Source: Sporopachydermia quercuum (Eukaryota). From it: a stretch of DNA of 64,000 nt. Below the pieces are notes generated by a model. It was given only the letters and a program-made list of their open reading frames with translations, did no database searches and had not been told where the DNA came from. A program made the translations under genes and the position numbers. This document shows, in pieces, positions 33,801-56,177 of this stretch (position 1 is the first letter of the stretch; each line of letters begins with the position of its first letter). The DNA lies in NCBI GenBank assembly GCA_001599295.1, contig BCGN01000012.1:186001-250000 (forward strand). Reading direction: 5' to 3'.

Positions 33801-34523
33801 TACACTGATATTCCATAGATTGTAATCTTGAGCCAATTTTTCAGACTCTTGCAGCAATTGCTGGGCTTTAGAGAAATTCTTGCTTGAGATTAACCCGTCA
33901 AGTTCATTCGGCACTTGGTTCAGCTTATTGATAGCATCAAGGGTTTCCAGTACATCATTATACCACATAGAGTCTTTCTGCATCTTCCGCAATATATCTT
34001 TTTTCTGGAATAAAGCATTTCGTGAGTTGTCAAGTTGAGATTGAACGTCGCTTAGTATTGATTCTGACTCTGCAATGGATTGTACAACTGAACCATAAGC
34101 TCCTACACTGCTATTGAATCCCTGGTACTGGGCATTGACTGCTTCCTGTAATGCCTTAGCTAGCTGGTCCTTGGACTCTAGAAATTCAGGAAGCCTTTTC
34201 GCAAGACCAACAGAAGATGTATCAAGAAAGGAAAAAGCCATCGAAAGCGGATTTGCATCATCGTCAGCGAAATCCGACCACTGATTTTCCAGTTTGGTTT
34301 GCAGTACTGTTCGTTAGTATCGTGAGAGAAGTAAGCGAATATTAAAATTGACTGCAGAAAAGATTTAAAGCGGCATTATGAAATAAATAACAGAATACTT
34401 ACGTTTCAGCTTATTTATACTGAGAATCTCAAGCTGTTCTTCTTCAAAAGTTCTGTTTGTTACTGATAATGTTCGCCTTCTGCCTTTGCGTTGAGGCTCA
34501 GGGACAGAAAGTAAGTTGGGCAT
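30834..34523 (-). CDS. SEC8: Exocyst subunit Sec8; exons 34523-34403 and 34306-30834
   Basis: Spliced N-terminus MPNLLSVPEPQRKGRRRTLSV...QWSDFADDDANPLSMAFSFLDTSSVGL, followed by YQGFNSSVGAY. The 96-nt intron runs GTAAGT..TACTAAC-GAACAG. Confidence 0.9.
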
Positions 34524-35445
34524 TTCGGAAGATTACAGTAATAGGATACTCACAATAACGGATGTAAGGGTGAATTCAGATACGCTTGTATAATATTAGG
34601 ATTAGGATCAATAAATTAGGTTCCTTCTATAAGAAAGTTCGGAAAGAACTGAATGATTTTATACTGCTGTCTATCGGATCCGTTAACGGGGCAATTGGCA
34701 ACAAGGCACGGAAGTGGAAATGGTGATGAGAAGCGGAGAGGATATTAATAGGGTGAGACATTATGTGTATTCCCTCCGAAATATTTCGGAAAATGTGATA
34801 TAATCACGTGACTGATATCTTATATAGCTATCTGCTTTATTAAAAGAAATAGACATATGATATTATTATCATAATAATAGTTAAATCTGTTGGATTAAAC
34901 TGGCAAATTATTATTGGGATAAGTGAATTACATTTGGGACTCCGGAATGGTAAGCTCGAGGGTTTAATACCTGCTGGGAAACGCTATCACCAGTGGAGGC
35001 ATCTAGGTAGGTCAACAGGTAAAGGAAATATCCATTGTCGATGACCCAGTGGTACCTTATTGAAACAAATGACCAAAAAATGAATACTATTTTTGATTGA
35101 ATAGTTAACTCTTAGCGGAAACAGAGACCACCCACTACCTTGGATAATAGATGACCTGATGACCTATTGTATTTCAGATAATTCATGATGTAACAATAAC
35201 CATGTATCATATATCAGCAAATGATCAAAACGGTGATCATATCAATTGATTTCCTTCCTACATTAGTACTATTTCCCTCTTACAAAAGCCTTGTATGTTG
35301 TCACATTATGTAGTTATTAATGTAATCAACAGAAATAGATATAAACCCGTACAATACAATCAGTAACTAAAACCAAAACACCAATAAATCCTAATATAAA
35401 CCGACTTAGCCTCTTCAAATACTCTAAGATTTCCCACACTCTCCT

Positions 35446-36450
35446 TTAATTAGTGCTACCTCTTGATCTTTGCCTTTCTATCAGATCGGCACTATCATCG
35501 TAATATGGTGTACTTTCTCTCATCAGCAAGAACCTATTCACTCTGGCTTCTTGACTCTTATCAAAGCCATAGTTAACATATGCTTGAAATAAATCCATCA
35601 CAGATTTCTCGTGAATAGCTTTCCTTTTCTCTCTTATCAAATCTGCTTTCCTATTCATGAAAATTAATTGGCCGTAAGCTACTATAGCTGATACCATTAA
35701 CAGCACCATTAGTATTTTCATTTTATTATCAACAAATTCACTGGAATCGACGCCATTACTTGCTCTTTTCAAATCCTGATAGTCCTCCCAGTTAGATGCT
35801 CTATAGTATTGCTGATTGGAAAAATCATAAAAATAGCCATTGCTATTAGGAGAAAATCCTTTATGATGCTGGGCCGGCGCAGGATTGTATGCGTAGTTCC
35901 AACCTATCCCGAAATTGTCATACAAACTACGTTTCTTTTCATCTCGCAGTATTTGATACGCATTTGTTACTTTCTTAAACCTTTCTTCGCGCGATTTAGC
36001 TGACAACGAGGAAATTGAATGTGGTATGGTTGAATTAGTAGCGTTTGACGCAGCGTTACCGTGACGGTGATCCACTGGTTGATGATGGATAATGGAATGC
36101 AAGTGATTTGAATCCGGATGATACAGACGAGCAAGCTTTATATACTTTTTCTTAAGTGTTTTAGAGTCAAATGATTCTTTTGACAAACCAAAGATTTCGT
36201 ATGGGTTTGGATGTGGTTTCTGAGGCCACTGGGGAACATCTGAGAAGTTGGAGAAGTTGTGACGGTAAGCACGCTGGTTGCTTACATTTGCGTTAAGATG
36301 TTCGTTTGAAGGCGTTTCTGAAGAGGAGCTGTTGATGTGGAGGCATCGTGTGAATGAAATAGGGGTTTTGATTGTTGCTTCGCAGGAAGATCTGATAATG
36401 AACCTAATGCTTCTACCAATGGTACGTTTAAAAAGACAAGTAGCAGCCAT
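35446..36450 (-). CDS. JID1: Mitochondrial J-domain protein
   Basis: WP..HPNPYEIFGL, ARLYHPD, RFKKVTNAYQIL..R..YD and a C-terminal TM segment. First ATG is at 36450. Near ARO7, YMC and SEC8, as in S. cerevisiae. Confidence 0.78.
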   Translation of the reverse strand: MAATCLFKRTIGRSIRFIIRSSCEATIKTPISFTRCLHINSSSSETPSNEHLNANVSNQRAYRHNFSNFSDVPQWPQKPHPNPYEIFGLSKESFDSKTLKKKYIKLARLYHPDSNHLHSIIHHQPVDHRHGNAASNATNSTIPHSISSLSAKSREERFKKVTNAYQILRDEKKRSLYDNFGIGWNYAYNPAPAQHHKGFSPNSNGYFYDFSNQQYYRASNWEDYQDLKRASNGVDSSEFVDNKMKILMVLLMVSAIVAYGQLIFMNRKADLIREKRKAIHEKSVMDLFQAYVNYGFDKSQEARVNRFLLMRESTPYYDDSADLIERQRSRGSTN

Positions 36451-37526
36451 CAGGAGAAGGGGACTGCTAGAGTTATAGTGACTAAAGCTGAGTATCTGAA
36501 TAGCCCTACTGTGAAGGTGACCCAATAGTCAGGAACTGACCTTTGTAGTATAAAATAAGGGATACGATGTGTCTAGTGTAAGTAATCGTATGTGATAGGG
36601 AGATGACATCAGTGACATCCAAATCACTACGCACTCTGCACACGCAACTAGCAATTCTAACTAAGCTTTATGCCTCAATATTGATATGAGAACGTTTTTT
36701 TATAAACCTAATCAGTAGAACAAGAGCTCTAAATCAGAATAATCGTTCAAAAGACCTTGTTGTTTGTTGAGAAACATACCACAACCTGCATAAAGTACGG
36801 GGGAAATTTTATAATATCAGGACCAAGCCACCAGGAGTACGTTTATGGATGATGAATAAGCCACAGTACATTAGAGTGTTTTTGGAGGAGTGGACTTAAA
36901 CGTCAGCCAATGTAGGGGATAGTCAGTAGTTTTGAATCAACAAAACAGCTGGATATAATTTGGGAGAATAGCAATAATAGCAATAATGTATAGCGTTTTA
37001 ATAGTTCATTGAATTCATTATTAACAAATCACATTGTAGCAGGGAGTAATGAGGGAACGAGAACAGGTCTGAAGACAAGTGAGACAATAAATAAAGTTCG
37101 TATGGTGAGAAATGAACACTGATTTGGGTAATAAATCCAGAGTTATGGCGCAGCAAAAAGATTAATTAAGGAAAAGAGCAAATTTCGTGTGGCAGTCAGA
37201 AAAGGGGTTAACTAAAAAAGTTACCCTCTTAAAAATAACTGTTTCTCTAATCATGTGCGGTTTAAAGGTAACTGATGTATTAGGAAGTTAAAGCCACTAG
37301 ACGCTCAAGAGGGATATTTTCAGTTATGATAAGGAATCCTCTGAGTTGAAAATCCTGATCGTTGAGCAGTAAGAATATCTGATGAATTCGAACAAAAAAT
37401 GAAAATTGAAAACTGGAACTTGCAAAAATAATTACATTTATACACATTTATACTGAATAATTTTTGGAATGTAATAAATCATTGCCCATTGCTCATTTCA
37501 ATAGGTCATGTCTTGTCTGTGGCTCA

Positions 37527-37543
37527 CACAAAAGTGACAGAGA
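37527..37543. promoter_or_regulatory. Candidate middle sporulation element upstream of SMK1
   Basis: CACAAAA (Ndt80 core CRCAAAW) overlaps AAAGTGACAGA, whose reverse complement TCTGTCACTTT fits the Sum1 consensus DSYGWCAYWDW. Confidence 0.5.
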
Positions 37544-37931
37544 ATTTTGTAACCCGTTCGAATTACAATCAAATCGTCATTGTTGATCTCTGTTTGTAGA
37601 GACTTTATGCATTTTATTTCAATATCCTTTTATAATATCACCTATATAATTCTTAAAGTTCTTCTGATTCTGATTAACTTAACTTAAGAGATTTATTGGT
37701 GTAACAGAGATCCTAATGATTGTTCATTTAGGATAATTGATGGTTGGTTTTGTTAAAAGAAAGCATTAACGTTGTAGGAAAAAATCTACAAGATATTAAC
37801 AAAACAAGAGCTTTTCAATTGATCTTTCTTTCACTGTTAGTAGCAATAGTTCGTAAGAATTCTATCAAAGAAACGTACTATTTGACTTCAGACTAAATAC
37901 CATCAGAATAGAACCATCAACATCCGTCGTA

Positions 37932-39736
37932 ATGATTGTTGGATCAAAACCTTTGGGTGTTTCTAACACCAAAAAGACCCATAGACCAAGATGGGGAAAC
38001 ATCGGCAGTAAGACATTCGACTCGACAGAGAATCAAAAAAAGTTTATTATGACAGATAGACAGGAAGGTCAAAAAGTCGAGGAGTATTCTCTATATCCAG
38101 AAGAAAAGTTTGCCGTTAAGAAACGATATGAGCTGGTCGAAGTATTGGGAAAAGGATCATATGGAACTGTCTGTTCTATCGTTGATTTGGCTTATAGTAA
38201 AGGCGGAACGGATGAGACTCCAATGATCCTTGCAGTCAAAAAGATCACAGGGATATTTAATAAACCCGTTTTAATGTTGAGAGCCGTTAGAGAGATCAAA
38301 CTGATGAAACTTTTCAGAGGTAAGTGGACAACGCTGTTTTCATGATTTCGAAAGCCACATAATAAGATCAATCATAACAAGTGATTTAAATACTAACAAA
38401 TCTATTATACTTTTGATAGGTCATAAAAATGTATCATGAAACCATTATTTCTTACAGCATGATAGGCATCATACTAACAACAATTAAAATCCACACAGAT
38501 CATTCAACTATTAGATCTCGATGTAGTAAATAAAAAACCATTTGCCGGCTTATACTGCTTCCAAGGTAAGCATCGAAACGAGATCTCACTGCTATCCTAT
38601 AATAAACACATAAAGAAATCATAGATAATAACACATTGTGCAAATAGAAAAGCTTGATTTTGATTTAGCAAATTTGATTCTCAAGCAAAAAGTACCATTC
38701 TCTGAATTCCACATAAAAATAATCATTTATCAACTACTGTGTGGTGTGAAATACATTCATTCAGCTAATGTAATTCACAGAGACTTAAAACCAGGAAATA
38801 TACTGATATCTCGTGACGGGGTACTGAAAATCACTGATTTCGGTCTGGCCCGAGGAATCAATTCTTCCAGAAAGTATGCTAATCAAAATAACAAGGCCAG
38901 AAACGAGATAACAAACAATATTATAGATTCACATATAACGGCATATGTCGCGACTAGATGGTATAGAGCACCAGAGCTGATTGTAAGCAATCGTATTTAT
39001 GGGTTTCCAGGTATGCAAATTTCTCTGTTTCATATTATCATTTATGTACCTAATGGATAGAGGTTGAGCAGAACTAACGAGGATGATAACCGTATCAGTT
39101 GATATTTGGGCAGTTGGCTGTATTCTATGCGAACTTATTGGCAGATACCCTATATTTAAAGGCACTTCAGAGGGATCTCAAATATTGGAAATACTAAAGG
39201 TGGTAGGAACTCCAAACCGTAGAACAATTCGTCGCTACGTTGATGAAGTATAATCTCTACCAGGTCACTCTATATCCATCCAAGAGATGCTAAATTACTT
39301 GATCAATAACTAACTTACAACATCAAAGTATGAATATTTCTTTCCACCCATACACGATAAAATACCGCGATTATTTTTCAATGAAATATATCCGCAGATT
39401 AGAGAAGAAACGAACGATTTGTTGGAGCATTTACTTTGTTTCAATCCTGAAGATCGTTTTGCAGCCGATGAATGTTTAGAGCATCCCTATTTCAATCCAG
39501 TACGTAATATTGAAGATGAAGCAGCATGCCCGCAACGTTTTGACTATGAATATGAAATGAAAAGTAACTCATCAGACTATCTATTTAGTATGAAGTACCG
39601 AATTTCCTGAGAGCAGTTATCAAGTAGTATTCTTTCTTTTGGTTTGTATTGATTGGATTCCATTTTTAACCTGACATTTCATTTTGATTTAGAAATACTC
39701 ATGAATGAAGTACACTCAATGAAAACAAGTCCTTAG
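37932..39736 (+). CDS. SMK1: Sporulation MAP kinase; 7 exons: 37932-38319, 38420-38430, 38499-38565, 38648-39010, 39099-39247, 39329-39587, 39693-39736
   Basis: Spliced product: [117 protein letters not shown]. The start could instead be the ATG at 38049. Confidence 0.88.
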
Positions 39737-40293
39737 TGATGATATTTCTGCTAGCAAGACTGCTTTCTATAATGGGCAATGCAAATAAATGAAAATTGAA
39801 GAAAATGAGACCAATTTTATTCTCAGTCTGTAGTATTGGAATACTTTACTTGCTTTTGTTCATTCAACAGCTGCCAACTTCCATTCCCTATTTTTGCTTA
39901 TCAGCTTCTGATCATACAATCAAAAATTTAAATATTATTTGTTCACCAAATCAAAAAAGTTTGATGGTTTAATATCACGTCATCATAAAAACATTATTTC
40001 CTCAACATAATCGACATATATTGAATTCACTCTATTATTGATAGCAATGGGGCTTACAATCAGCAAACAATTGACACCCTAATAAACAGCGTTCTTATAT
40101 TAACAACTAAATGATTACCTTATCTAAATCTCCTTATATATTCAACATTTTCCTCTACAATCATAACCCTTATCGTACGTTTCTTTTTCACCCCTGTTAT
40201 GGGCCTCATGTATCGCCTAAGCCGCCTGGCTATTAGATGAGAATTATCCCCAGAAATCATCAATTGAACAAATAACGCCTGCTTTTCGGCAAA

Positions 40294-43200
40294 ATGGGCC
40301 AACAATTATCACTTATGATGACCAATGCTCCAGCTGTAGCTATCAGCTCATACATATTCGAACTTGGGAACGTTCAATACGAAACTACAATCGGCAACTC
40401 CAGGTTTTTGAAAACGGTTAACATCTGTGATGATAAAGGCTTAGCAGTAGTGAAGTTATTCATAAAACCACCATTAGGTTTGAACCTACAACCATATGTG
40501 AAGAAGCTACGAGCGGAACACCTATCATTACAGATCTGTGCTTCAGTTCTACCCTATGAAGAGATAATAGAAACAGACCGTGGTGGATATTTAATCAGAC
40601 AACATTTACGATGGAGCCTATACGATAGAATAAGTACCAGACCTTTTCTGGAGCCATCAGAAAAGAAGTGGATTGCCTTTCAGCTTTTAAAATGCTTAGA
40701 CGACTGTCACTCCGTTGGAGTTTGTCATGGTGATATCAAATCAGAGAATGTACTATTGACATCATGGAATTGGGTTTACTTGACTGATTTCGCATCATTC
40801 AAACCAACAGAGCTTCCTGACGATAACCCTTCACAATTTTTCTTCTATTTTGACACCTCGCAAAGAAGAAATTGCTATTTAGCTCCTGAAAGGTTCTATC
40901 CTCCTAATAATTCGAAATTCACTGTAGGTGACGTTTCTTCTACTGCAGCAGACCAAAACACATCAGCATCTTCATCCTCAATAGAAAACGCCAATCACGC
41001 TTCCAATACCTCGATTTTTCCTTATAATAAACCAGAATTAACCCCAGCTATGGATATCTTCAGCTTGGGCTGTGTCATTGCTGAACTTTTCCTGGAGGGA
41101 ACACCTATCTTTTCTCTTGCTCAGCTTTTCAAATACAAAGCTGGTGAATATAAACCTGATTTATCCCTGATTGAGGATATCTACGTGAGAGAAATGATTA
41201 CCAGTATGATAAGTGTTGATAGCAGAGATAGAAAGAAAGCAAGCGACTATTTGACAAGATATCGGAAGAAAATATTCCCTGATCATTTTTATACATTTCT
41301 CTATGAGTATATGAAAGATTTAACACTGCCACCAGGGTATATTGATCCATCTGCAGGACCTGATGATCGATCTAATGAATGTGATGATCGTATAAGCAAG
41401 ATATTTACTGATTTTGATAAGATCTGCTATTTTCTCGACCTGGAGCAGGAGGAGCAGGAAATTACGGGAATTGCGGGTCAAATAAGACGAGATAATCCGG
41501 ATGCAATTAGTTCGGAAGATATTCCACTTCCTGGAAGTTCCGGTATAACTTCCGCACCAGTTCATTCTGATCCTTCTCAGAGTGCATTGATCTTCCTATC
41601 TATCCTCTTCTCTGCAATACGAAATACTTCCACAACCTCTTCACGTGTCAAGGCCTGTGAATTGATTCTTCTATTAGGCCAAAGAACTCACGACGAAGCA
41701 AAACTAGACCGTTGTATTCCATATTTAGCTTCTATGCTTGAAGATTCCAGGGCAGAAGTTCAGTCAGCTGCATTAAAGACCCTAACAAGTTTAATAGCCT
41801 CGGTTGAAGTTGTGACACCAATTAATGCATTAGTATTTCCGGAGTATTTAGTCCCAAGACTGCAAAGTTTGATTAACTCGTGTAGTGCATATACTCGAAT
41901 GATATTTGCATCATGTCTTCCGCTTTTAGCGACCTCGGCACTGGAAATATCCCGCAAAGCGGAAATCTTACGTCTGAATGTTCTCCGGACTTTCATTGAC
42001 CCGGAAACAGAAAATGGAATACCCGCGGGTACCCAATCAGTGGCGATTTCAGCCACCGCGCTTTCAGAACCATTTGAACAATTTGCTGTGGCTTTGTTGA
42101 CGGATTCGGAGCCCTCAGTTAAAATAGCTTTATTACAGAACATTCTTCCGTTATGTCGATTTCTCGGAAGAGAGAAAACAACAGATATTGTGCTAAGTCA
42201 CCTGATTACCTATCTGAATGACCGCCACTCTCGACTGCGCCTTGCCTTTGTCTGTGCTGTTCCAGGAATATCCGTTTGGGTAGGACCGGAGGCTCTGGAA
42301 CAATACCTTTTACCGCTATTGATCCAGACATTAGCCGATCCTGAAGAATTTGTAGCTGTGGCGGTTGTTCAAACATTTGTATCGCTTTCGCGGCTTGGAA
42401 TGCTCCGTCGTCATTTGGTAGAAGATTTGCTGCGGTCGGTCCTTCCGTTGGTTTACCATCCGAACAATTGGCTTCGGCAAGGAGCACTCGGCTTAGCAGA
42501 AGCAGTTTCGGCTAGGATGAGCTCCGCCGAGATATACTGCGTATTTTATCCCATTATTCGGACATATCTCGATGCAGAGGTCACTAATTTCTCACTCGGA
42601 AGCTTATATCTATGCGCTAAGGCTCCAATGCCGAGAAATGTATATAACCAAGCTCTTTCATGGGCCGCAAGCTCGGCAACAAACATTGCAAATTTAGTTT
42701 CAAGTTTCTGGCAAAGTGGAAATGCCGATATAAGTTCCGAGAAAGACCGAGATTGGCTACTGACTTTAAAATCATCGGGATTAGCCGATACCGACATGTT
42801 TAAATTGATTGCTCTTAAAGATTATATTTGTCGAGTTTCTCGGCTTCGACCCCGTATGACTGGCGGAAGTAACTCCGATGCTCGGTTCCATAGCGGATTT
42901 TATGATACCTCAAAGCTCCTGTCACCGCAAACTGTGTTTTTCGACAGTCCGTCCTCGTACGGAAGTAATAGCTTTCAGAAGGTTCCGTTAAATTACGGTG
43001 AAGACAGTGAAGAGACATCATCCATTGAACCGAGATCGGAAACTTCGGAAGCTATCGGTAGCGGAAATGATGACAATATCCCTGCGGCTATAAGCGGCGC
43101 TGTGTCTACCACAGTTTCTCCCACGGCGAGCGGATCCAACACACCGGGGATACTACTTTTCGGCAAATCTAAAGCCGAGCCTGTGTCATCTACGAATAGC

Positions 43201-45249
43201 GAAACCGTTTTCGGAAATATATCGGAACCGTCAACAGAGTTGAACTCTAATTCTGACCAACTTTTATTGTACAATAACCGAATTCAAACTCAAAATCAGA
43301 CTGGGACATCGGGAACCGGCAGCTCTATTGGGACAAACCGGATAGAAATGCCGCCCGTGCTATCAAATACGGAAGAGATATCAAGTAGCATTACGAAACA
43401 AAAATGCCAAATGCTCGCCCGAGAATTGAGTCACACTTATTCTGGCAACGACCAATATGTACTGAAATATCTCAAGAAGGTTGAAATTGAACCGGAGCTA
43501 AAGTTGTTTGATGAGTTTGGGCCGATTGTTCCGCAATATTTTGGCTCACTTTCCATCCAGGGAGAACAGACTGAATTAAGTAATCAGAACACTACTTCCG
43601 GTAATGTGCCTAAATTCTGGACGCCAAATGGGGTTCTAGTGGGTAGATTAACGGAACATACATTAGGAATAAATCGGATAGCTGTTTCATATGATCATAG
43701 TTTTTTCCTAACTGCTTCTGATGACGGAACTGTTAAAGTTTGGGATACGAATAAGGTTGTTAACAACATAGTGGGCAAGTCGGAGCTTACATTAAGTTTC
43801 GGCTCAGCAGTCAAATCGCTTTGCTTTGTACACAGCAGAAATGTGGTATTAATCGGAACCAAAGACGGAATCATCCGGTTGATCCGAATAGACATCCGCG
43901 TTATCCCGAACTCTGTTCCAAACTCAGCTCGATCTTCATTTGGAAGTTTCGGACCCCTCGGTACTTTCGGCACTTTCGGAAGAGGGGACGACTCCAACAG
44001 AGAGTACACTAATGTCGAATTACTAGGAGAATATCACTTAAGGCCTAAAACCTCATCATCCAAAGCCGAGTTCGGAATAGATGTAGCTTATTATGAGACT
44101 TCTTCCATTCCGACGGCTTTGGTTCTCACGTCTAAAGCTCGGCTTGTTGCTATTGACATCCGTACTATGGACACCTTATTTTCGAGCCAAAATCCTTTGT
44201 CCCACGGGGTTCCGACCCGACTTTTAGTTGACCCCGAAGTCACATGGGCTGTCGTGGGAACAAGCCGAGGCATAATTGATGTATGGGATTTGAGATTTAT
44301 ACTACATATTAAAGCTTTCGGAATACCGGGATGTTATCCTATTGAAGATCTCCGATTATACCCGGGAGTAGCACATCAAGGGAATCAGCCGGAGAAATCT
44401 AGGCATAAGGAATCTCGATGGATCTGTGTTGCTGGTGGAACAAATCAGAATGAAGTCACAATATGGGACCTATCCCGAAGTCAATGCCGAAAAATCTATC
44501 GAAGCTCAGTCTATCCGACATCAGCTTCGAAATCAGGCTCCAACAATAGTTCTAGTTCTGCTTTTACCTCAGCACCCGAAAATCAACCTAATCCAGAAGC
44601 TTATGAACCTATTCCGGTAGATTCCACTGTTGTATCGAGCCACATAGGAGACAATGACTCCAATTCAACCCGAATAAACAAAGTTTTGACTAGCAATATG
44701 CAAGCTTTGAACCTTGATTCCCTTTCGGCAAAACTAGCGAATTTGAATGTTAGTTTGATTGTTCCTAATTCCGGATATAATACGACACATACTCTTATGG
44801 GTTCTTACGTTATCCGGAGAATTTTAACATTTGATTTAGATAGCTCGAAGGACAGTACCTCGGAAGTCTTCGGAGAAAAATCATTATACATTCTGAGCTC
44901 CGGGTCAGATTTAAGAACTATTTTTTGGAACTTATCCCGAATAGATCAATCTCAGGTTCTAATTGGAGACAAACTCAACCAAAGAGAAATGTGTGTCTTC
45001 TCAACCTCCCAACCAAATCAACATTTACAGATAGTAAATCAGAAGTACCGAAATGGAAAATTAGTCGAGAAACTTAACTCTGATTTAGGAACTAAAAGGA
45101 AGGTAAATCGGACAACAGTTATCTCGGAAGAGCAACAGGAATTGATAAGAAATCATCATGATTACGTTAATGATATGGCTGTCATTCACAAGCCATGGAA
45201 TATCATTATCAGTGGAGATCGCTCGGGGGTGATTAATATGTATAAATAG
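40294..45249 (+). CDS. VPS15: PI3K regulatory kinase Vps15 (kinase - HEAT - WD40)
   Basis: Myristoylation-type start MGQQLS, plus LYDRISTRPFL, HGDIKSENV, LTDFASFKP and CYLAPERF, HEAT repeats and WD40 repeats. Confidence 0.95.
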   Translation: MGQQLSLMMTNAPAVAISSYIFELGNVQYETTIGNSRFLKTVNICDDKGLAVVKLFIKPPLGLNLQPYVKKLRAEHLSLQICASVLPYEEIIETDRGGYLIRQHLRWSLYDRISTRPFLEPSEKKWIAFQLLKCLDDCHSVGVCHGDIKSENVLLTSWNWVYLTDFASFKPTELPDDNPSQFFFYFDTSQRRNCYLAPERFYPPNNSKFTVGDVSSTAADQNTSASSSSIENANHASNTSIFPYNKPELTPAMDIFSLGCVIAELFLEGTPIFSLAQLFKYKAGEYKPDLSLIEDIYVREMITSMISVDSRDRKKASDYLTRYRKKIFPDHFYTFLYEYMKDLTLPPGYIDPSAGPDDRSNECDDRISKIFTDFDKICYFLDLEQEEQEITGIAGQIRRDNPDAISSEDIPLPGSSGITSAPVHSDPSQSALIFLSILFSAIRNTSTTSSRVKACELILLLGQRTHDEAKLDRCIPYLASMLEDSRAEVQSAALKTLTSLIASVEVVTPINALVFPEYLVPRLQSLINSCSAYTRMIFASCLPLLATSALEISRKAEILRLNVLRTFIDPETENGIPAGTQSVAISATALSEPFEQFAVALLTDSEPSVKIALLQNILPLCRFLGREKTTDIVLSHLITYLNDRHSRLRLAFVCAVPGISVWVGPEALEQYLLPLLIQTLADPEEFVAVAVVQTFVSLSRLGMLRRHLVEDLLRSVLPLVYHPNNWLRQGALGLAEAVSARMSSAEIYCVFYPIIRTYLDAEVTNFSLGSLYLCAKAPMPRNVYNQALSWAASSATNIANLVSSFWQSGNADISSEKDRDWLLTLKSSGLADTDMFKLIALKDYICRVSRLRPRMTGGSNSDARFHSGFYDTSKLLSPQTVFFDSPSSYGSNSFQKVPLNYGEDSEETSSIEPRSETSEAIGSGNDDNIPAAISGAVSTTVSPTASGSNTPGILLFGKSKAEPVSSTNSETVFGNISEPSTELNSNSDQLLLYNNRIQTQNQTGTSGTGSSIGTNRIEMPPVLSNTEEISSSITKQKCQMLARELSHTYSGNDQYVLKYLKKVEIEPELKLFDEFGPIVPQYFGSLSIQGEQTELSNQNTTSGNVPKFWTPNGVLVGRLTEHTLGINRIAVSYDHSFFLTASDDGTVKVWDTNKVVNNIVGKSELTLSFGSAVKSLCFVHSRNVVLIGTKDGIIRLIRIDIRVIPNSVPNSARSSFGSFGPLGTFGTFGRGDDSNREYTNVELLGEYHLRPKTSSSKAEFGIDVAYYETSSIPTALVLTSKARLVAIDIRTMDTLFSSQNPLSHGVPTRLLVDPEVTWAVVGTSRGIIDVWDLRFILHIKAFGIPGCYPIEDLRLYPGVAHQGNQPEKSRHKESRWICVAGGTNQNEVTIWDLSRSQCRKIYRSSVYPTSASKSGSNNSSSSAFTSAPENQPNPEAYEPIPVDSTVVSSHIGDNDSNSTRINKVLTSNMQALNLDSLSAKLANLNVSLIVPNSGYNTTHTLMGSYVIRRILTFDLDSSKDSTSEVFGEKSLYILSSGSDLRTIFWNLSRIDQSQVLIGDKLNQREMCVFSTSQPNQHLQIVNQKYRNGKLVEKLNSDLGTKRKVNRTTVISEEQQELIRNHHDYVNDMAVIHKPWNIIISGDRSGVINMYK

Positions 45250-45933
45250 ATTGAATGATACCGGAAATTCTAGGTTGGGTGAGAAAGAGCTTTGAAAGTG
45301 GTGAGAAAGCTCCGAAAGTACCCTAAGAATGTTTGATATCATTTAGGATGACATGCTTTACAGTTGGCTTGATATGGACGTTGACTACATGACCTTAATG
45401 TGATATCCCATTATCTTGTTACCGTTAACCTTGATGAGATTTATAATGAAAGAACCTTTATATATGTACTATATAAAATATACCTAGTATACGCTAGAAT
45501 GATAGTGCTGTTCTTATATCGAGGTGAAGATGTTTAACAATAGAAGCTTACATAATCAGAATGGTTTCCTACTTGGAGTTAAAGTTAAGAAAGTTATTAC
45601 TTAAAGTTCGGCTATTAAACTATGTAACCTTAACACTTAGCGTNNNACGCTAAGTCTTAAGGTTTCTGCATGGATATGCATTTAGCTTGCAGCTATCATA
45701 CATTGATCTCCACCTCTGATTTTCCAGTTTCCTTCTGCGAAATTTCATTGAACTTCTCAATTCGTTTACTTCCCTTTTCTTTCCTACCATCAACTACATT
45801 ATATGTTTAGGATAATCCTAATATTTCTTTACCTATAAAACTCAATTGCTAGCTAATCATTTGCTAACTTGCTATGCTTAGCATCAAACCAAGACAACTA
45901 TCCAAGTCCTCTAAACATATTCATCAATTCATC

Positions 45934-46731
45934 ATGGATTTCACTAAACCTGAGACGGTTCTAAACCTGTCTAACATCCGAGACGCTCTAGTTAGAATGG
46001 AAGATACTATTGTTTTTAATATGATTGAAAGAGCACAGTTTTATCAAACAAATATAATCTACCAAAGCAAAGAAAACGGTGATGAAAAGTATATAGAAAT
46101 ACCTNATTTCAACCGTTCTTTCCTTGACTGGGCTTTACTAGAAAGTGAGAAAATGCATGCTAAAATAAGACGCTATGAAGCACCAGATGAATTGGCATTC
46201 AATCCAAAGGAATTACCAAAGCCAATTTTGCCAAAACTCGAATACCCAAAACTCCTTGCTAGCTATAGTAATGAGATCAATTTAAACAATAAGATCAAAG
46301 AGATCTATATAAAAGAAATCGTTCCTAGAATAGCAGCAGGGCCAGGAGAACAGAATGAGAACTATGGTAGTTGTGCTATTACTGATATAGATGTTCTGCA
46401 GTCTTTAAGTAGGAGAATACATTTTGGTAAATTTGTTGCTGAAGCAAAATATCAAACAGAGAAAGAGAGNTTCACTCAGTTGATTTTGGCAAAGGATGTT
46501 AAAGGTATAGAAGATGCAATTACGAATGCCGCCGTCGAGGAGAAGATTCTTGAACGATTAGAGGAGAAATCATTGGCTTATGGCACGGATCCAACTTTGA
46601 AATGGAGCCAGAATCCTCAAGGTAAGATTGATCATAATGTTGTTTCTGAAATTTATAAGAAATGGGTTATTCCTTTGACGAAAGAGGTTGAAGTTGAGTA
46701 TTTATTGAGACGATTAGAAGATGAGGAATAA
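45934..46731 (+). CDS. ARO7: Chorismate mutase
   Basis: MDFTKPETVLNLSNIRDALVRMEDTI, LQSLSRRIHFGKFVAEAKY and VIPLTKEVEVEYLLRRLE. An upstream in-frame ATG lies at 45874. Confidence 0.96.
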   Translation: MDFTKPETVLNLSNIRDALVRMEDTIVFNMIERAQFYQTNIIYQSKENGDEKYIEIPXFNRSFLDWALLESEKMHAKIRRYEAPDELAFNPKELPKPILPKLEYPKLLASYSNEINLNNKIKEIYIKEIVPRIAAGPGEQNENYGSCAITDIDVLQSLSRRIHFGKFVAEAKYQTEKEXFTQLILAKDVKGIEDAITNAAVEEKILERLEEKSLAYGTDPTLKWSQNPQGKIDHNVVSEIYKKWVIPLTKEVEVEYLLRRLEDEE

Positions 46732-48219
46732 GTGCGTTAGAGTAATAGGAATGAAGGTTGATAATATGAATAGAATAGAATAAAAGAGGAAGTATACTGA
46801 GAGATAGGGAGGATATAATAATAATAATTCTTAACTGAGTTATGTATTGTTTATTGGATTAGTTGATTTCATTCAATAGTGCTTGTTAGATGTGTTTTGC
46901 AGTAGAACAATGAGAAGGGCAAGGTGGTGAACTAAGGAGCAAATGAAAAATATCAGGATTGGTTGTTGATTGATCGTTGAGTCATTCATCATATTTCATT
47001 CTTCATTGTTAAAAATAATAAAGTGGTACGTTGTATGAAAACTCTTACAATAATTTGATTAATTAATATTCAATCATTTGGTTGAACTTTTGCCTATGTT
47101 TCAACTAGTTGAATAATTAGTAGAATAGACATTCAAACGCCCATTCATCATGAATTCGACCCAGTATATACTGGGGAGCACTGCTTGATTGATAATACGT
47201 TCAAGCTATGGGTAATCTAATTTGACCCCTTGAATAGGTTAGTTGGTATGTGAATTTATGTATGAAGTACTAGTAGCATAAGAGTGATACCCAGGTAATG
47301 GAAGCCTTCTTTTATCTGCTTGTCTCCTTCAAATAAAGCATTTCATTCTTGTCATTCACCTTCAGGTAAGGCAGTCATTTTCTAAATCGTAAATTGATAA
47401 TGATATAATTAATAAGTCTTATAGTCTTATGGTTCAGTTCCTCAAGTCGATCATCCTCAATCATTCATCTTCTAAGATTCAATCCAGTGTAAAATATAGT
47501 TATAGTTATTAGTAGCTCTATCACAATCCTATATACAATCTATCGGTCTATTCTTCACGAGGATAAAAGATTATAACAAATAAAAAAAGAGAAAAAATAA
47601 AAGTAAAAGTAAAAAAGAAAAAAGAAAAAAAGAAAAAGATGAGACTGAATTATCGTGCTATTAATTAACAATTAGGAGCTGACAATAATACTTGTTGACC
47701 CGTATAGAATGATCATCAATATCAGTCAAGTACTAACAATAATTGAAGGGCAAATACNGATGATTTTCTATGTTATAATACAATTATATTTTCTGTTCTC
47801 TTCTACTGAGTTGATGGGAAACTGTGCCATTTAATGAGTTGATGCTGAATGATTGATATACCCGAACTTATAGTTTGTCGTTCATATTGTTATATTAACA
47901 ATTGCAACTATAACGATAGTATCCAAATAGTGATCATCATGCTGATTCCTATCCTATAGTTACAACTCATTATCACACGCATCTTTATACTGATACCCAT
48001 TTCTATTCTAATGCTGGTACAGTCACTGACAACTGGTCTCCTTTCTATTCCAACCGTCAATCCATTCTTTTCCTACCTAATTATTCTATTATTATACATA
48101 GTCATAGCCATCAATGAGCATTCTCACCCTACCACCAAAACTTTTTTCTTTTCTTTTCTCTTCTACTTGAGCCCCGACTTTTCAGTTTTTGCTCAATCTT
48201 CCATCTATCAACCACCTCC

Positions 48220-49155
48220 TCAATTAATCATTCTCATTGTCAATTCAAATGTATAGAAAGTAATAGCATTAACAGGAGCAGCTCTTAAAATTGTAGGTAA
48301 AAATCCTCTAAAGAAACCTTTGATTCCTGATGTTGCATATATCTTCTTAGCACAGTCAATTGAATTCTTATAGATATGTTTTGATGGATTTATATCATCA
48401 GTTTGCATCTTACTCTTAATAACATCAATAGGATATGATGTCAACCACATGGAATATCCTGAAGCCGCACCATATAAGCAAAGTCTCCAACCAGGGATAT
48501 CTTTTCTTTCAAACTTGTTCATAGCAATATCTTTCTTAACTAATGCTTCAAATGTAAGGAAATAAATACCCATACCATGAGCCTCACGAATCAAACAAGG
48601 AGTGAATCCTCTGAAGATACCTTGAAATCCTGCCACGGAATATATTTTTTTAATAGCATCCAATGGTCCTCTATATAATACCTTACCACCTTCACCAGTC
48701 TGGGTTTGAAGTCTGATACGAATGTGTTCAATTGGTGATGCTAGAAGAGTGTTAGCAATACCAGCCGCACCACCTGCTAAGTAGAATTGTCCGCTGGTTA
48801 AGATATGAGGATTTTGGTAATTTGGCTTCTTTTCATTGATAGATGTGAATAATCTTTTCATGAACTCATTGACTCCAAATTGAATAGAAACGCAAGCTCC
48901 AACTCCAACTAATGGTGTGAGTGTTCCTTTATAAAACCCTTTGAATCCTTCATTTTTCATCAACTGTTTGATCACATCAATAGCTCCAGAATATTTACCT
49001 TCTGGTGCTGATTGAAGTCTGACTTTTGTAGTATCGAAAGGTTGTCCAGATAGCACTTGGGCAATGCCACCGCAACTTCCCGCAAAGACGTCTTTCGCAA
49101 CTCTTGCGAATCCTTCGTCTTCTGCTTCTACTAAATGAGGATCAATGTCAGCCAT
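48220..49155 (-). CDS. YMC1: Mitochondrial carrier of the Ymc1/Ymc2 family
   Basis: Three PX[DE]XX[KR] repeats (PFDTTK, PIEHIR, PIDVIK) and FYKGTLTPLVGVGACVS. Confidence 0.88.
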   Translation of the reverse strand: MADIDPHLVEAEDEGFARVAKDVFAGSCGGIAQVLSGQPFDTTKVRLQSAPEGKYSGAIDVIKQLMKNEGFKGFYKGTLTPLVGVGACVSIQFGVNEFMKRLFTSINEKKPNYQNPHILTSGQFYLAGGAAGIANTLLASPIEHIRIRLQTQTGEGGKVLYRGPLDAIKKIYSVAGFQGIFRGFTPCLIREAHGMGIYFLTFEALVKKDIAMNKFERKDIPGWRLCLYGAASGYSMWLTSYPIDVIKSKMQTDDINPSKHIYKNSIDCAKKIYATSGIKGFFRGFLPTILRAAPVNAITFYTFELTMRMIN

Positions 49156-52116
49156 AAGGAGTATTTGATTGAATGTATGTTTGATAAGTCAGTTGCCGCA
49201 ATGATTAAACAATATGGTCAATATTTACTTGGTTAATTTGATCTGTTTTCTTCTTACTTTCCAATTGATTATCTTATTTTATCTGCCCTTACGGCCTGCT
49301 GATGGTATCAGGATAATTCAGTGCAACCTAATGCTAGATAATATAATTTGGCTAGAACGGAATGAATGAAATAATTTACATTAACTATTTGTCTTTCATT
49401 TATTTTTATTCTGTTCTTTCTTCTTTTTTTCTTCTTCTTTTATTACCAAGAAAGCTCTTTCAAAAGATGTTCGAGAAGGATAAAAAATGAGAAAGAGGGA
49501 GAAAGCAAAATTTGAACAGGACGAATTTTTTTTCAGCCAATGAATTATTTGCTATTGGAACAGAAGTGGAATAAATGAGGGAGAAAAAAGAAAGTGGAAA
49601 GAGACAATGAATAATAATTAGAAATAACAGAAAAACTTGATATTTATTTATTACAATAGAACGTGAATTTATGTAAATGAAATATAATGGATTATAATGA
49701 TATGGTGGAATGAAAGTTATGAATAATTAGCTACTTGGTTGTTTTCGTATAGTAATAAACTTTTTTACTATAGGTTCAGCCTTATGAGTGGGGAAAAAAG
49801 AAAGAAAAGTGAGATATTGAACAATGGAAATAATGGAAATAATGGGAAGGCAGTTGATTGTAATGAAATATAGCAGTTCGAAAAAAACTTTTGAGAAGGT
49901 TGGAACAGGTATGGGACTATAATAGAAGATGGCAGAACGAATGGCAAGTGTTGTATGCTAGCTTTTAATAGTCAATATTCGGCAGATAGTTGATAGGTTT
50001 ATCAGTATATATAAGAGCAGCTGAAGTAGCTTTTAGATCAAACAATAAATTCATTAACTGTTGTTTAAGTATCCAATCAGTCAATCGAATGAAGATCAAA
50101 CTTGATCGGATATAAGATGAAAAAAACTAAATCAATAAACAAACATCAGCTAGAAGAAGAGAACCTGAACGCGGATAAATAGTGCCCGTGATAAATGAAC
50201 TCCAAGGTGGATTGTAAAAGGAAACTGATTGATTGTCGATAACGAGATAGAAAACATTCTGTAACAAGCAGGGAGACTTTTGGGGATGAGTTGGAGGAAT
50301 TCCAAAGATTTGCGGATAAACTGTTCAGTATCAACGGTTGCTGCTGTTCTTGTCATCTTGTCAATCAACCTGCTCGTAGTCGTTGGCTGGAGATCAGGAA
50401 GGTAACGGAGAAATGTCACCCAGTAACAAGAAAAAAATAACGAAGAGAATAATCATAATTCAATAGTCGGTTTAATATTAGAAACTGAATAGCAAATAGA
50501 ATACTTAAATATTATAAATGTTCTTCAGCTTCGGAATAGAATAGAATATTCACAGCTTGCTTGCTGTCTCGTTTATTATTTCTCTTATAGTGAAAAGAAA
50601 GAATCATTGGCTAATAGTAAGAATTTTTGGAAAGAATACCGGCCTTATAGGATTAAAGTTTACAATAGTGTGTATGATATGCGAGTTATCTGTAATATTT
50701 GAAGTTAATTTTATCTGGTNCTGAAAGGCTTTACCCGCTGTCGAGAGGATGGAAGGCCTTTGGCTGATGTTGCTTTTGGCTATTGATAGTGCATATGGTT
50801 ATTATGAACGAACGCGATCTACTTTAATTGTGGACTCGCTGTAGATGAAGAAGCAATTATACCCGAATATAGAATTGATCAAAAGAACAAATGTTTAGTT
50901 AATCAATGATATCTCTTAACTTAAGGAGAGAAGAAAAGTTGAAAATTAAGGTTTCCCTATAGGCTGTATGCATCTTAGAGCTTTTGAAGGAGCGTTTGAT
51001 TAGGAAAATATGAAAAAGATCAAACTGGTATTCAGACAGAAAAACACTGTGAGACAAAATATCAAATTTTAACTATTCTTTTTTCTATTGTTTGGAGGGT
51101 CTTATCACATCATAATTCCTGCTATTATTTCACTACTGTCAATATCAAGTATGCTAACCTCATTTCCTCTCGCCTAAATGACTCCAACATTTTAACTTTG
51201 GGACTTTTGTTTCCTAAAAGGGTAAGATACACTTCTACTATGTAATTTATTGATTATATAAACATAAACTCCTTTGATAACGATTAACTAAGAAGTCAAA
51301 AAAACAATTAACTTCTATCGCACTAGTTTCTCTGCTTTCAATCCATTTCCAGTTCAGTTTAGATAAAGCATCTAAATCTCTTGATAGTGCTGAAACCGAA
51401 TCATTCTACAAACCCCAGTGCTTTCCCTCAATACCAGTTTGTCTCCTTCTTTAACATATCACTGGTATTATCTTCTGAATCCCCCTCTACTTACATCATT
51501 CATCCTTTTCTCAGCAAATGCAGTATTCCTGCATATTTTATGCCGACTCTCTTTTTCTTCCCAGGTTATCACACAATTACATGCACAAGTCTGCATACAA
51601 ATATACTCTGCGTATATCCCTAACTTTATCTCCAATCCTGATGCCTTTAAGCCGATTTCCCCTTTATTACAGTAGAACATCAGAAGATAACAGACATCCA
51701 AATAGCGCATAAAAGAGTTATACATTCAAACAGCGATTTGTTAACCAAAAAGAAATTTTATCCTGGTAATTTGTAGAAAATCGCAAGCAGTATTAATAGA
51801 AAGCTGAATTTATGGTATTAACTAAACTTGCATTCAGTTGGAACAAAGACGCCTGCAAGGATTTGTTGATTCTCGTTTGACGTATTACATAGAAATAAAG
51901 GTCGTCAAGTGGGAGAGTAGATAAGATTATTGCAAAAAGGGAACGATTGAAAGTCTTATTGAACGATAGTTTTTTCTTTAAAGCAAACAAAGATCTTATT
52001 GCTTTTCTTTNNAATACGGTCTTTCTTGCATATATTGTTTGATCTGATTGTTGCACGAGATAACATCGTCGATCAAGCGCTTATCGCTGGCGTTATTGNA
52101 GAAACCCCAACGCATC

Positions 52117-53280
52117 ATGCCGATGCCTGAACGTGAAAGAAGAGATGGAGACTTCCATTTCAATGCTGCTGTTAAAACAAGCACTAGACTCTCTTCGATG
52201 TTTTACAGCTGTAGCGACATAAACGGTCATAGTAAGGATAAGCAGAATTTCGGTGATTCAAGCAAACACTCTGCTGGTGATACTTCAAATGGCTATTCTG
52301 ATGATACGATAATGAGTGATCCAACGGCAGACAACAGTAATGATTCGTCCGGCAATAAAAACAACAGAAATGACCCCTCGTCGAATAACACGTTTGCTGA
52401 TAATAAATCTTTGAAACGCTTAGAGGCGGCTATCAAACGAGCAGCCAATAGCCCTCCATTAGATCTTGAATCTGGCTTAGATGATGTTGCTCTTACTTTA
52501 CAACGATATATTCCAGAATACTCTGGCTATTTAAGGCCAGGTTCAGTGTTTGTTGGCACTCAGCANTCAGGAAGATCTACGTATGAAGTTTCTGTCAGAA
52601 TCAAATATGTAGATTATAAGCAGTCATTTCTATCTGGGTATTTAACAATCCAAGGATTAACCGACGATTACCCAGAAATGATCACATACTTTGAAGGAGA
52701 AATGGTTGGCTCTAAGTATTCGTTTTTCACTCGTAAAGCTGATTGGGGAGCTTCCGATAAGACTGATCAGGCCCATTGGTCCAGGTTCCCTAGTTGGAGG
52801 ATTCTGAACAACAAACGAAGGAAACGTTCTACTACTAGTGAAACTAACGTAGTTATGGAATCACCTTTCTCTTGGACTGGTACCGGAACTAATGGTAGAA
52901 GCTCTAGTGGCTTACATGCTGCTGCTGGTGCCACTGATTCGTTCTCTAGCTTTGATGGTAGAAATGGTATCGGACCTAGTAGTACTAGTAGTATAAATAA
53001 TAGCAGCTCTAGTAATAATCTTGCTCCTTCATATATTCTATCACCATTTCAAAATAGAGAGCATATTTATATGAGATGGAAAGAATGTTTCCTTGTTCCT
53101 GATTATAAAGTGAAAGATATTGCTGGCGCTAGTTATGCAGGATTCTACTATATCTGTTTATCACAGATTGATGGTAGTATTTCTGGGTTTTATTTTCATC
53201 AAGCAAGTGAAAAGTATCAACAGTTGGAGCTCAGTCCACGTGGTGATCATGATGCGCTTGGTAGTTTTGAATCCCGTTGA
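52117..53280 (+). CDS. VID24: GID E3 ligase Pro/N-degron receptor (Gid4/Vid24 family)
   Basis: LRPGSVFVGTQ, GYLTIQGLT, TYFEGE, MRWKECFLVP, GASYAGFYYI and YQQLEL. First ATG is at 52117. Confidence 0.88.
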   Translation: MPMPERERRDGDFHFNAAVKTSTRLSSMFYSCSDINGHSKDKQNFGDSSKHSAGDTSNGYSDDTIMSDPTADNSNDSSGNKNNRNDPSSNNTFADNKSLKRLEAAIKRAANSPPLDLESGLDDVALTLQRYIPEYSGYLRPGSVFVGTQXSGRSTYEVSVRIKYVDYKQSFLSGYLTIQGLTDDYPEMITYFEGEMVGSKYSFFTRKADWGASDKTDQAHWSRFPSWRILNNKRRKRSTTSETNVVMESPFSWTGTGTNGRSSSGLHAAAGATDSFSSFDGRNGIGPSSTSSINNSSSSNNLAPSYILSPFQNREHIYMRWKECFLVPDYKVKDIAGASYAGFYYICLSQIDGSISGFYFHQASEKYQQLELSPRGDHDALGSFESR

Positions 53281-55741: not shown

Positions 55742-56168
55742 TGTTTGCACTTATGGATTCTTCTGGTTGACAGTCAAGAGACGTTCACTCTACAAATATG
55801 TATAATTGGCCAACCAGCGTGGTCCAATGGTGCGAGATTAAGAGACGAGCAGTTGATGAAATGTTCTTATTGGAAACAAGATGCAGACAACTCTACGCGA
55901 TATGATTCAATACAGCTTCACTATTCTATAGCTCTACTGCTCAATTGATTGACCTTACAGAAGCAAACCAAACTCGTACATCAATGTAGTATTCTATCAG
56001 GTAGAATAATATCATTCGTCTACTCCTTTCAGTTTATTCGTCTGACTGATTAACAATAAACCGCAAATTGGTACAAATAGGGATGTGGAGTTACCACAAA
56101 CTGATAGTGAGATAATGTATTTTAGTATTACGTAATCATGTTTTTTTACTGTTGACAGTTTTAGGTTT

Positions 56169-56177
56169 TAGCCGCCA
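56169..56177. promoter_or_regulatory. URS1-like (Ume6) element upstream of PEX3
   Basis: TAGCCGCCA, with a second partial TAGCCGA about 40 bp downstream. Confidence 0.35.

Follow-up and report, generated by a model that had tools for sequence, protein, structure and literature searches.

A bounded field of CGG/CCG triplets at silent sites of a VPS15-like gene of Sporopachydermia quercuum looks like a DNA-level signal

Described binding sites of Zn2Cys6 proteins include CGG-N11-CCG for Gal4, CGG-N6-CGG for Hap1, CCG-N4-CGG for Leu3, and CCGCGG for Pdr3, as well as the sites of the monomeric AlcR and the multiple CGGANNA sites of Rgt1; some members of this family have several loosely arranged sites. 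CpG islands are delimited by the criteria of Gardiner-Garden and Frommer: an observed/expected ratio above 0.6 over more than 200 bp, together with a G+C content above 50%. Repeats of the (CCGNN)n type, which contain CCG, exclude nucleosomes and have an effect on chromatin in yeast. Gene conversion tracts reach a scale of about 4 kb, and the inhibitory codon pairs of Saccharomyces cerevisiae involve CGA, CGG, and CCG. Published work describes CGG as the canonical zinc-cluster half-site, usually paired but also reported to be bound by monomers (PMC10954478), the CXXC domain of CFP1 as preferring CpGG 4-8 fold and as indifferent to the base before CpG (PMC3072069), and the inhibitory codon pairs of S. 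cerevisiae as conserved in their placement (PMC6379720). The element analyzed here is a field of CCG and CGG triplets inside a VPS15-like open reading frame (ORF) of S. quercuum. It was found in a stretch of 64,000 nucleotides (contig BCGN01000012.1, positions 186,001 to 250,000), herein referred to as the window. Homotypic half-site clusters and CpG islands are the nearest known kinds, and full-text search results, considered at the level of listings and abstracts, described no yeast coding domain enriched in CGG/CCG.

The enriched stretch of the VPS15-like gene is 3.85 kb long and looks like a signal at the level of DNA rather than codon bias or GC drift. The host gene and the main parts of the field are the following:

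40294-45249, plus strand: VPS15-like ORF of 1651 amino acids, uninterrupted (ORF list and translation)
40294-41463, plus strand: kinase-domain part of the ORF, used as an internal control; background level, 6.0 triplets per kb
41465-45314, both strands: field of CGG/CCG ("CSG") triplets; 159 triplets, located on 139 distinct CpGs, in all frames
41800-44500: plateau, where 128 (44%) of the 290 silent opportunities are used

A sequence-only reading of the window had counted CCG+CGG by hand, giving 33 at 42601-43200, 5 at 40321-40920, and 4 at 10201-10800, and the recount gave exactly these numbers. The enrichment that it had proposed within VPS15 was confirmed, and it lies far beyond chance after control for both amino-acid composition and local G+C at third codon positions (GC3). 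Six 600-bp bins from 41401 to 45000 contain 18, 29, 33, 24, 30, and 17 CCG+CGG, whereas all the other 600-bp bins of the window contain 0-13. At 41470-45246 the density is 41.0 per kb. The initial 1.17 kb of this ORF has only 6.0, and the 17 other ORFs of the window range from 2.3 to 20.3 per kb. Such a field is not the norm for long genes of the window, as all four other ORFs of at least 2.3 kb are without it.

The field is bounded at both ends. Its left edge was placed between 41408 and 41465 by a likelihood change point (log-likelihood ratio, 25.8). The share of silent opportunities used, that is, of silent positions able to make CCG or CGG, is 0.23 in the first 300 bp of the field, 0.36-0.54 over 41.8-44.5 kb, and then 0.32, 0.38, and 0.20 on the approach to the stop codon. 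The kinase part uses 0/23 of these opportunities at Pro, 1/17 at Arg, 4/33 in frame +1, and 2/28 in frame +2. The poorly conserved low-complexity linker (residues 831-1075) is the densest part of the field, with 57 triplets per kb, and the HEAT and WD40 parts have about 35-41. The sequence-only reading had the enrichment continue past the stop codon. Sites were indeed found there, but two sites in about 70 bp are too few to show that the field leaves the ORF; the next site after 45312 is at 45422, where the density is back at background. Two features lie at the ends of the field:

41442-41459, plus strand: 9-bp tandem duplication of GGAGCAGGA, two copies, encoding EQEEQE (Tandem Repeats Finder (TRF) and sequence)
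45261-45314: sites past the stop codon, CCGG (45261-45264) and CCG (45312) (sequence and TRF)

The GGAGCAGGA duplication is located where the kinase domain and the HEAT repeats meet, and the field has its first triplet 6 bp further on. The CCG at 45312 sits in an 11-bp imperfect repeat (45278-45309), two copies of which differ by TT versus CC, making a CCG. Short purine-rich tandem repeats thus adjoin both ends of the field, the 9-bp one in two copies and the 11-bp one in 2.9 copies. Tandem repeats of this kind occur about once per 600 bp, so their adjacency to the ends may be a coincidence.

The encoded protein and the codon usage of the window predict far fewer triplets. Recoding of the same protein with the codon usage of the window gave 50.8±7.0 triplets (maximum 74 in 2000 draws) versus 155 observed (z 14.9), and the density implied by the protein is 13.6 per kb versus the observed 41.0. 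The corresponding expectation for the C-terminal parts of 59 homologues is 12.3 per kb (range 7.8-15.7). GC3 hardly shifts, from 0.349 to 0.378 in the field. The density of silent opportunities in the field, 0.305 per codon, falls inside the range for 120 homologues (0.314±0.047), exceeds that for six AT-rich yeasts (0.19-0.21), and is among the highest for the ORFs of this window (0.155-0.31); a mild protein-level effect, in the form of an amino-acid skew, is therefore possible.

The triplets occur independently of the reading frame. Forty-one of them are in frame and 114 span codon boundaries, and about two thirds of the excess is of the cross-codon type. Silent opportunities are used at 28/62 for Pro (0.45), 61/124 in frame +1 (xCS|G, 0.49), 53/132 in frame +2 (xxC|SGx, 0.40), and 13/67 for Arg CGG (0.19); the corresponding shares in the 17 other ORFs are 0.09, 0.14, 0.12, and 0.04. 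When synonymous codons were permuted within the field, 74.0±6.0 cross-codon triplets were obtained (maximum 91 in 2000 permutations) versus the 114 observed (z 6.6). This excess goes beyond the codon usage of the field itself, and therefore neighbouring codons are co-ordinated to write the triplet. CCG, CGG, and CGA, the rarest Pro and Arg codons outside the field (8, 4, and 9% in the 17 ORFs and the kinase part), reach 45, 19, and 33% in the field. A codon-usage domain or rare-codon cluster was rejected, because the excess is mostly cross-codon and the distances between sites have no mod-3 preference. A cis layer laid over the ORF at the level of DNA, or at least of nucleotides, proposed by the sequence-only reading in place of gene-wide codon bias, is supported by the cross-codon excess, by the equal use of all three frames, and by the neutral codons, described next.

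Specificity for the triplet was found in each class of silent sites. The G+C content of 4-fold sites unable to make CCG or CGG is 0.309 in the field (n=379) versus 0.291 outside it (n=2397), and that of 4-fold sites able to make the triplet is 0.519 (n=237) versus 0.190 (n=1087). Neutral 2-fold sites have a C/(C+T) ratio of 0.336 versus 0.319 and a G/(A+G) ratio of 0.331 versus 0.353, and triplet-capable 2-fold sites are used in 26 of 40 cases in the field and 49 of 166 outside it. For 15 of the 16 amino acids compared, codon usage at the 858 neutral codons equals that found elsewhere in the window. Gly is the sole exception, with GGT at 6% versus 39% and GGA at 56% versus 35% (p 0.0026, about 0.04 when corrected). 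Codons of the NCG type keep their frequencies at neutral positions (TCG, 9% versus 8%; ACG, 10% versus 9%; GCG, 8% versus 6%) and are enriched solely where the next base is G.

The same specificity is found in the trinucleotide composition. The observed/expected ratio of CCG/CGG rises from 0.65 in the rest of the window to 2.06 in the field, the sole strong change among the 32 strand-symmetric trinucleotides. TCG/CGA goes from 0.66 to 1.24 through overlap (TCGG, CCGA), and ACG/CGT (0.61 to 0.49), CGC/GCG (0.55 to 0.60), GCC/GGC (0.92 to 0.92), and CCC/GGG (0.85 to 0.83) do not move. CpGs flanked by C or G have a density of 36.2 versus 6.9 per kb, and other CpGs 13.7 versus 13.3. The two triplets number 75 and 81 versus first-order Markov expectations of 42.7 and 44.8. 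As a whole, CpG has an observed/expected ratio of 1.07 over 3.78 kb versus 0.28-0.86 in 18 other coding segments (the 17 ORFs and the kinase part), and the G+C content of the field is 0.432, compared with 0.36-0.39 elsewhere.

The changes are defined by their product. Pro codons CCA and CCT both halve in the field, and CCG goes from 0/23 in the kinase part to 28/62. NNC codons are more frequent before existing Arg CGN (23/47 versus 25/132) and before Gly GGN (30/73 versus 57/473). At triplet-capable 4-fold sites, T and A both drop and G and C both climb. One-off neighbours of various kinds are thus turned into CCG or CGG, without a common substrate, which argues for selection or a selection-like bias and not for mutational chemistry. 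CSG-type CpGs also stand above neutrality (2.06), and therefore reflect gain or maintenance rather than escape from decay. Outside the field, CpG is avoided in every context (observed/expected, 0.55-0.66), and TCA/TGA, CAG/CTG, and CCA/TGG are in excess (1.25-1.36). This deficit, of a genome-wide type, resembles a trace of cytosine methylation, although yeasts free of methylation can show the same. A C-to-T mutation process like repeat-induced point mutation was rejected for the field, where TA is down (ratio 0.75) and CG is up (2.4) relative to the rest of the window, and no second copy of at least 80% identity was found among the contigs compared.

No strand is preferred by the triplets, and no fixed arrangement of them was found. 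Orientations are equal (81 CGG and 77 CCG) without strand runs (z -0.07), and the median gap between sites is 21.5 bp. Histograms of the spacings N0-N30 are flat for each of the four arrangements (inverted, everted, and direct), none of the spacings having more than 6 pairs. Periodicity between 2 and 400 bp does not rise above random placement (top power 7.5 versus a 95% limit of 8.7), including periods of 3, 5, 10-11, and about 165 bp. The opportunities used in the plateau are random among all opportunities (runs z -0.48; dispersion and largest gap as with permuted labels). The local phasing noted earlier does exist, with spacings of 7, 9, 10, and 6 at 43030-43062 and three 9-bp steps at 43950-43977, but it is not a property of the whole field. 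Its only true instance is the following:

43950-43979, plus strand: 9-bp repeat with four CGG at 9-bp steps, encoding FGPLGTFGTFG (sequence; TRF, 43958-43979, 2.4 copies)

This 9-bp unit is also the one repeat of the kind found by TRF, and a CGG/CCG microsatellite was rejected.

The flanks of the triplets carry little further information. The TCGGA/TCCGA context, which had been described as typical, is mostly a by-product of the Ser TCN, Gly GGA, and Glu/Asp GAN codons and reflects no flank requirement. At xCN|G sites of equal opportunity, the share ending in C or G is 0.57 for TCN, 0.67 for CCN, 0.45 for ACN, and 0.46 for GCN, and the frequency of GGA is alike without (23/43) and with (17/30) a preceding C. 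The extended motif TTCSGAA, present in 6 copies within the field and 5 elsewhere in the window, does not constitute the enriched unit. CCGG was found 19 times in the field versus 32.1 expected under independence of the flanks (odds ratio 0.28, p 9e-5); the remainder of the window gives a CCGG ratio of 0.92, and synonymous permutations give 0.99±0.14, with 0 of 1000 as low as in the field. For each CpG, a C or G on a single flank seems to suffice.

Several other kinds of signal were looked for. RNA folding in 12 windows gave z from -2.36 to +0.82 against dinucleotide shuffles (mean about -0.7, one below -2), a weak excess at best. Alternative-frame ORFs in the field stayed within the permutation range, and no overlapping ORF was found. 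Rfam had 0 matches at 36000-50000, and no tRNA or long repeat was found.

Compared with Zn2Cys6 sites, the field has the same unit, a CGG triplet in either orientation on double-stranded DNA (PMC10954478). Unlike those sites, its 159 triplets have no preferred spacing, orientation, or flank, and instead of the 1-10 sites of a promoter there are about 140 sites in 3.85 kb inside an ORF, with a hypothetical reader. Vertebrate CpG islands are likewise bounded intervals on the scale of kilobases with a CpG observed/expected ratio of about 1 in a CpG-poor genome. Of the two CpG-island measures, the field reaches that for the observed/expected ratio (1.07 over 3.78 kb) and stays below that for G+C (0.432). 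It differs from islands in that CSG-type CpGs alone are enriched, with ACG/CGT and CGC/GCG remaining depleted, and from promoter islands in its position in the 3' three quarters of a coding region. The favoured unit of the CFP1 CXXC domain, a CpG followed by G with an irrelevant preceding base (PMC3072069), is that of the field, and one reader per CpG would fit the deficit of CCGG.

Other described systems share fewer features with the field. Tracts of GC-biased conversion resemble it in a weak bias per site, the kilobase scale, indifference to frame and strand, and the greatest strength where constraint is weakest; they differ from it in that the field has no weak-to-strong shift at triplet-incapable sites and a bias on 1 of 32 trinucleotides. 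Rare-codon clusters and inhibitory pairs of S. cerevisiae over-use the same rare codons (CGA, CGG, CCG), but the excess in the field is mostly out of frame and dependent on context. Unlike (CCGNN)n repeats, the field has neither a 5-bp period (power 3.1 versus a 95% limit of 8.7) nor a tandem array.

A habit of VPS15 genes in general was rejected with the help of metagenome loci. Eighty distant VPS15 loci were fetched; the 33 covering most of the gene served as the control, and the 47 partial ones were left out. In these 33 loci, the ratio of C-part to N-part density is 0.72-1.54 and the observed/expected ratio is 0.68-1.05, compared with 8.0 and 2.05 here, and there is no switch in the C-part. 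The absolute density in the same loci is 20-49 triplets per kb.

Elsewhere in the window, the best segments use 10 of 30 opportunities (SEC8, 32723-32993; ADA3, 17847-18207) and are borderline after multiple testing, whereas segments inside the field have a median of 13 and reach 18. The Sec8-like ORF has two such stretches at 32662-33419, with 10/30 and 9/30 used versus a background of 0.104, and may contain a weak, borderline mini-field. About 300-550 bp upstream of this ORF (30834-34241, minus strand), 34524-34787 contains three of the five TTC(C/G)GAA words found outside the field, all within 260 bp, and 8 CCG/CGG in 200 bp. A real cluster of CGG-type sites in a promoter is a possibility here.

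The sequence of the field was compared with Logan contigs of about 111 kb that come from two studies (runs X1 and X2) and match 39001-56263 with 0 differences. X1 or X2 may be the source of the assembly, so that this match counts as one independent confirmation at most. No second copy or divergent allele was found in these runs at 80% identity or above, save a 58-base paralogue match elsewhere. Runs X4 and X5, from other organisms of the same study, gave short fragments or nothing, and none of the matches lay on the field. The window contains 21 letters N in 18 places, mostly single bases and all within 45644-62788; the first is about 330 bp past the end of the field, and none are present in the first 45.6 kb. 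Contigs of both studies cross these places unbroken, and heterozygosity is therefore an improbable cause of the N letters.

The window is an AT-rich fungal chromosome segment (about 36% G+C) with ordinary housekeeping genes. Pfam matches were found to ABC1 kinase, GDE1-type phosphodiesterase, arginase, Ada3, M16 peptidase, SDH CybS, and Fes1, and further to Sec8, DnaJ, chorismate mutase, mitochondrial carrier, Vid24-type, and Pex3 proteins. The product of the VPS15-like ORF consists of a kinase domain, HEAT repeats, the low-complexity linker, and WD40 repeats. It has at least 120 homologues among the matches listed, all of the Vps15/ppk19/PIK3R4 type with 29-50% identity, the best of those listed being from Lipomyces, Trichomonascus, and Dipodascopsis. 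The protein search found no VPS15 homologue above 50% identity for any part and thus no close relative. Upstream of VPS15 lies a multi-exon gene similar to mitogen-activated protein kinases (37857-39610, at least 4 exons, with kinase motifs in separate frames), and downstream lies a chorismate mutase gene (Pfam; ARO7-like). The sequence-only reading had named the upstream neighbour as meiotic SMK1, for which this kinase gene is a candidate, and had suggested a chromatin or silencing domain beside it as one possible meaning of the field. The arginase ORF (14206-14955) lacks about the first 67 positions of its profile; this incomplete ORF and the split kinase gene together indicate that introns are present in the genome. 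The VPS15 ORF, 4.96 kb long, is nevertheless intronless. An intergenic A-rich low-complexity tract of 80 bp with units of the AAAGAAAAAAAGAA type follows the chorismate mutase gene (47563-47644).

We tentatively favour a reading in which the field is under selection and its single CGG sites, about 140 in all, would be the landing place of a protein that reads CGG and sets a local chromatin or occupancy state. The sites sit almost wholly at silent positions of the part coding for the HEAT repeats, linker, and WD40 repeats. A weak and independent pull toward CGG would act on each possible site, with odds about 6-fold over background and 40-49% of the opportunities used, and this pull would be selection for how many CGG-type CpG sites the interval contains. 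A DNA-binding protein would then coat the interval; candidate readers are a Zn2Cys6 protein acting on single triplets and a CXXC-like reader of CpGG. The analysis establishes specificity for the triplet, independence of frame and strand, confinement to silent sites, bounds, and the sufficiency of one flank; from these we infer selection rather than drive, a reader protein, and a chromatin effect. The deficit of CCGG is consistent with selection on the count of sites, since a reader could use only one of two sites that overlap, and does not fit an independent pressure on each triplet. Equal orientation without strand runs is as expected for a reader of double-stranded DNA, and a weak effect of the -1 base in the field matches the preference of the CFP1 CXXC domain. 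The array of Zn2Cys6 half-sites proposed by the sequence-only reading is retained in part: classical dimer sites can be set aside, as no spacing stands out, and an unspaced field of single CGG is still a candidate.

Several points weigh against a selected field of single sites. The spacing and orientation rules of known zinc-cluster dimers are absent among the triplets. Nor do the triplets have a flank preference specific to the motif, and sites of transcription factors usually do. Spacing is not even enough to indicate selection for coverage (dispersion below random, p 0.12). The left edge coincides with the kinase/HEAT junction and the right one lies within about 70 bp of the stop codon, and the unconstrained intergenic DNA past the gene is not filled, which a pure DNA field does not predict. 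The Gly shift away from GGT (39% to 6%), in frame only, hints at a component at the codon level. Moreover, the field is a single locus in a single 64-kb window, and about 100 extra sites, each with S of about 2, would ask a great deal of selection. The field may, although this is less likely than not, represent a "CGG island", that is, a kilobase-scale field within a gene kept by selection as a landing pad for a CGG-reading protein, whether as a functional analogue of vertebrate CpG islands or as a chromosome-level mark; such a mark could have a pairing, replication, boundary, or kinetochore-type function. Similar CGG islands may occur elsewhere in the genome.

Triplet-biased gene conversion or mismatch repair, that is, drive in a long-lived, recombination-active tract favouring CCG/CGG, is an unlikely source of the field, although it accounts for part of its anatomy. 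It would act through repair of heteroduplex DNA or through over-transmission of alleles that lower break formation in cis. The weak, independent bias per site (odds about 6) with used sites random among the opportunities, the length of about 4 kb with tapering ends, the indifference to frame and strand, and the greatest density in the least constrained linker (57 per kb) are all consistent with it, and neither a reader nor a function is needed. However, GC-biased conversion affects all weak-to-strong changes, and the triplet-incapable sites of the field are unchanged. The local mutational or conversion regime suggested by the sequence-only reading therefore fails in its ordinary form, that of GC-biased conversion or a GC3 shift (0.309 versus 0.291), and is left with a triplet-specific bias. 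To our knowledge, no repair bias specific for CCG/CGG is known, and none was found in the literature search results as listed. A pressure acting separately on CCG and on CGG should leave CCGG undepleted. The profile is a plateau with a sharp left edge rather than a peak, and it is the one such tract in 64 kb.

A signal at the level of RNA or translation, acting after the kinase domain, seems quite unlikely. It would consist of CCG/CGG bound, whatever the frame, by an RNA-binding protein or rRNA, of slowing by the rare codons CCG, CGG, and CGA, which would pace the folding or assembly of the HEAT/WD40 part, or of both. The edges of the field at gene features (its start at a protein-domain junction and its stop at about the transcript end), the unfilled intergenic DNA, and the in-frame shift of Gly from GGT to GGA keep this alternative alive, as does the over-use of the three rare codons (45, 19, and 33%). 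Against this, about two thirds of the excess lies outside the reading frame and beyond the codon usage of the field (114 versus 74±6), NCG is enriched only before G, and NNC does not make a rare codon when it precedes Gly. An RNA-level signal gives no reason for CGG and CCG to be equally numerous on the sense strand, and folding is not clearly above that of the shuffles.

Replacement of the 3' 3.85 kb through recombination with a CCG/CGG-rich copy, from another lineage or from complementary DNA (cDNA), is very unlikely. A sharp left edge that lies inside the ORF beside a short tandem repeat and ignores gene borders would fit such an event, and the right edge near the transcript end might resemble that of a 3'-anchored cDNA tract. 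With 41 triplets per kb, the field is about as dense as the VPS15 genes of GC-rich fungi (20-49 in the 33 metagenome loci), and the choice of Gly codons deviates. The neutral codons and the composition of neutral sites are nonetheless those of the host, so that a donor must match the host in everything except the triplet, which merely moves the problem elsewhere. BLAST of four parts of the protein found none with different or closer relatives: identity is 48% for the N-terminal kinase part, 42-45% for HEAT, and about 30% for WD40, and the linker matched weakly (22 proteins, 22-38%); the parts are all equally remote from everything matched. RNA editing or reverse-transcriptase errors on the way would be defined by substrate and not by product.

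A composition effect or artefact (GC3 or isochore shift, CpG relaxation, amino-acid composition, or assembly or polishing error) is hardly credible: G+C does rise from 0.36-0.39 to 0.43 and the CpG ratio from about 0.6 to 1.07, in a window otherwise deficient in CpG with TpG/CpA in excess, but GC3 moves only from 0.349 to 0.378, neutral sites are unchanged, ACG/CGT and GCG/CGC stay depleted, non-CSG CpGs remain at 13.7 versus 13.3 per kb, the protein predicts 13.6 versus 41.0 per kb, and the contigs of two studies are identical. A GC3 shift, general biased conversion, CpG relaxation, gene-wide or in-frame codon bias, and assembly error are excluded.

Taken together with neutral-site controls, the fraction of silent opportunities that is used can serve as a statistic for whole genomes, in a search for further domains of this kind, and the field itself would, if selected, be a compact, recodable test bed, erasable by about 140 silent changes. 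If the field is a product of drive, it would be the first triplet-specific conversion bias and would affect how codon usage and silent-site selection are read in fungi. If it is selected, the silent sites of a yeast gene would carry a dense, protein-readable signal apart from translation, a second code over 3.8 kb.

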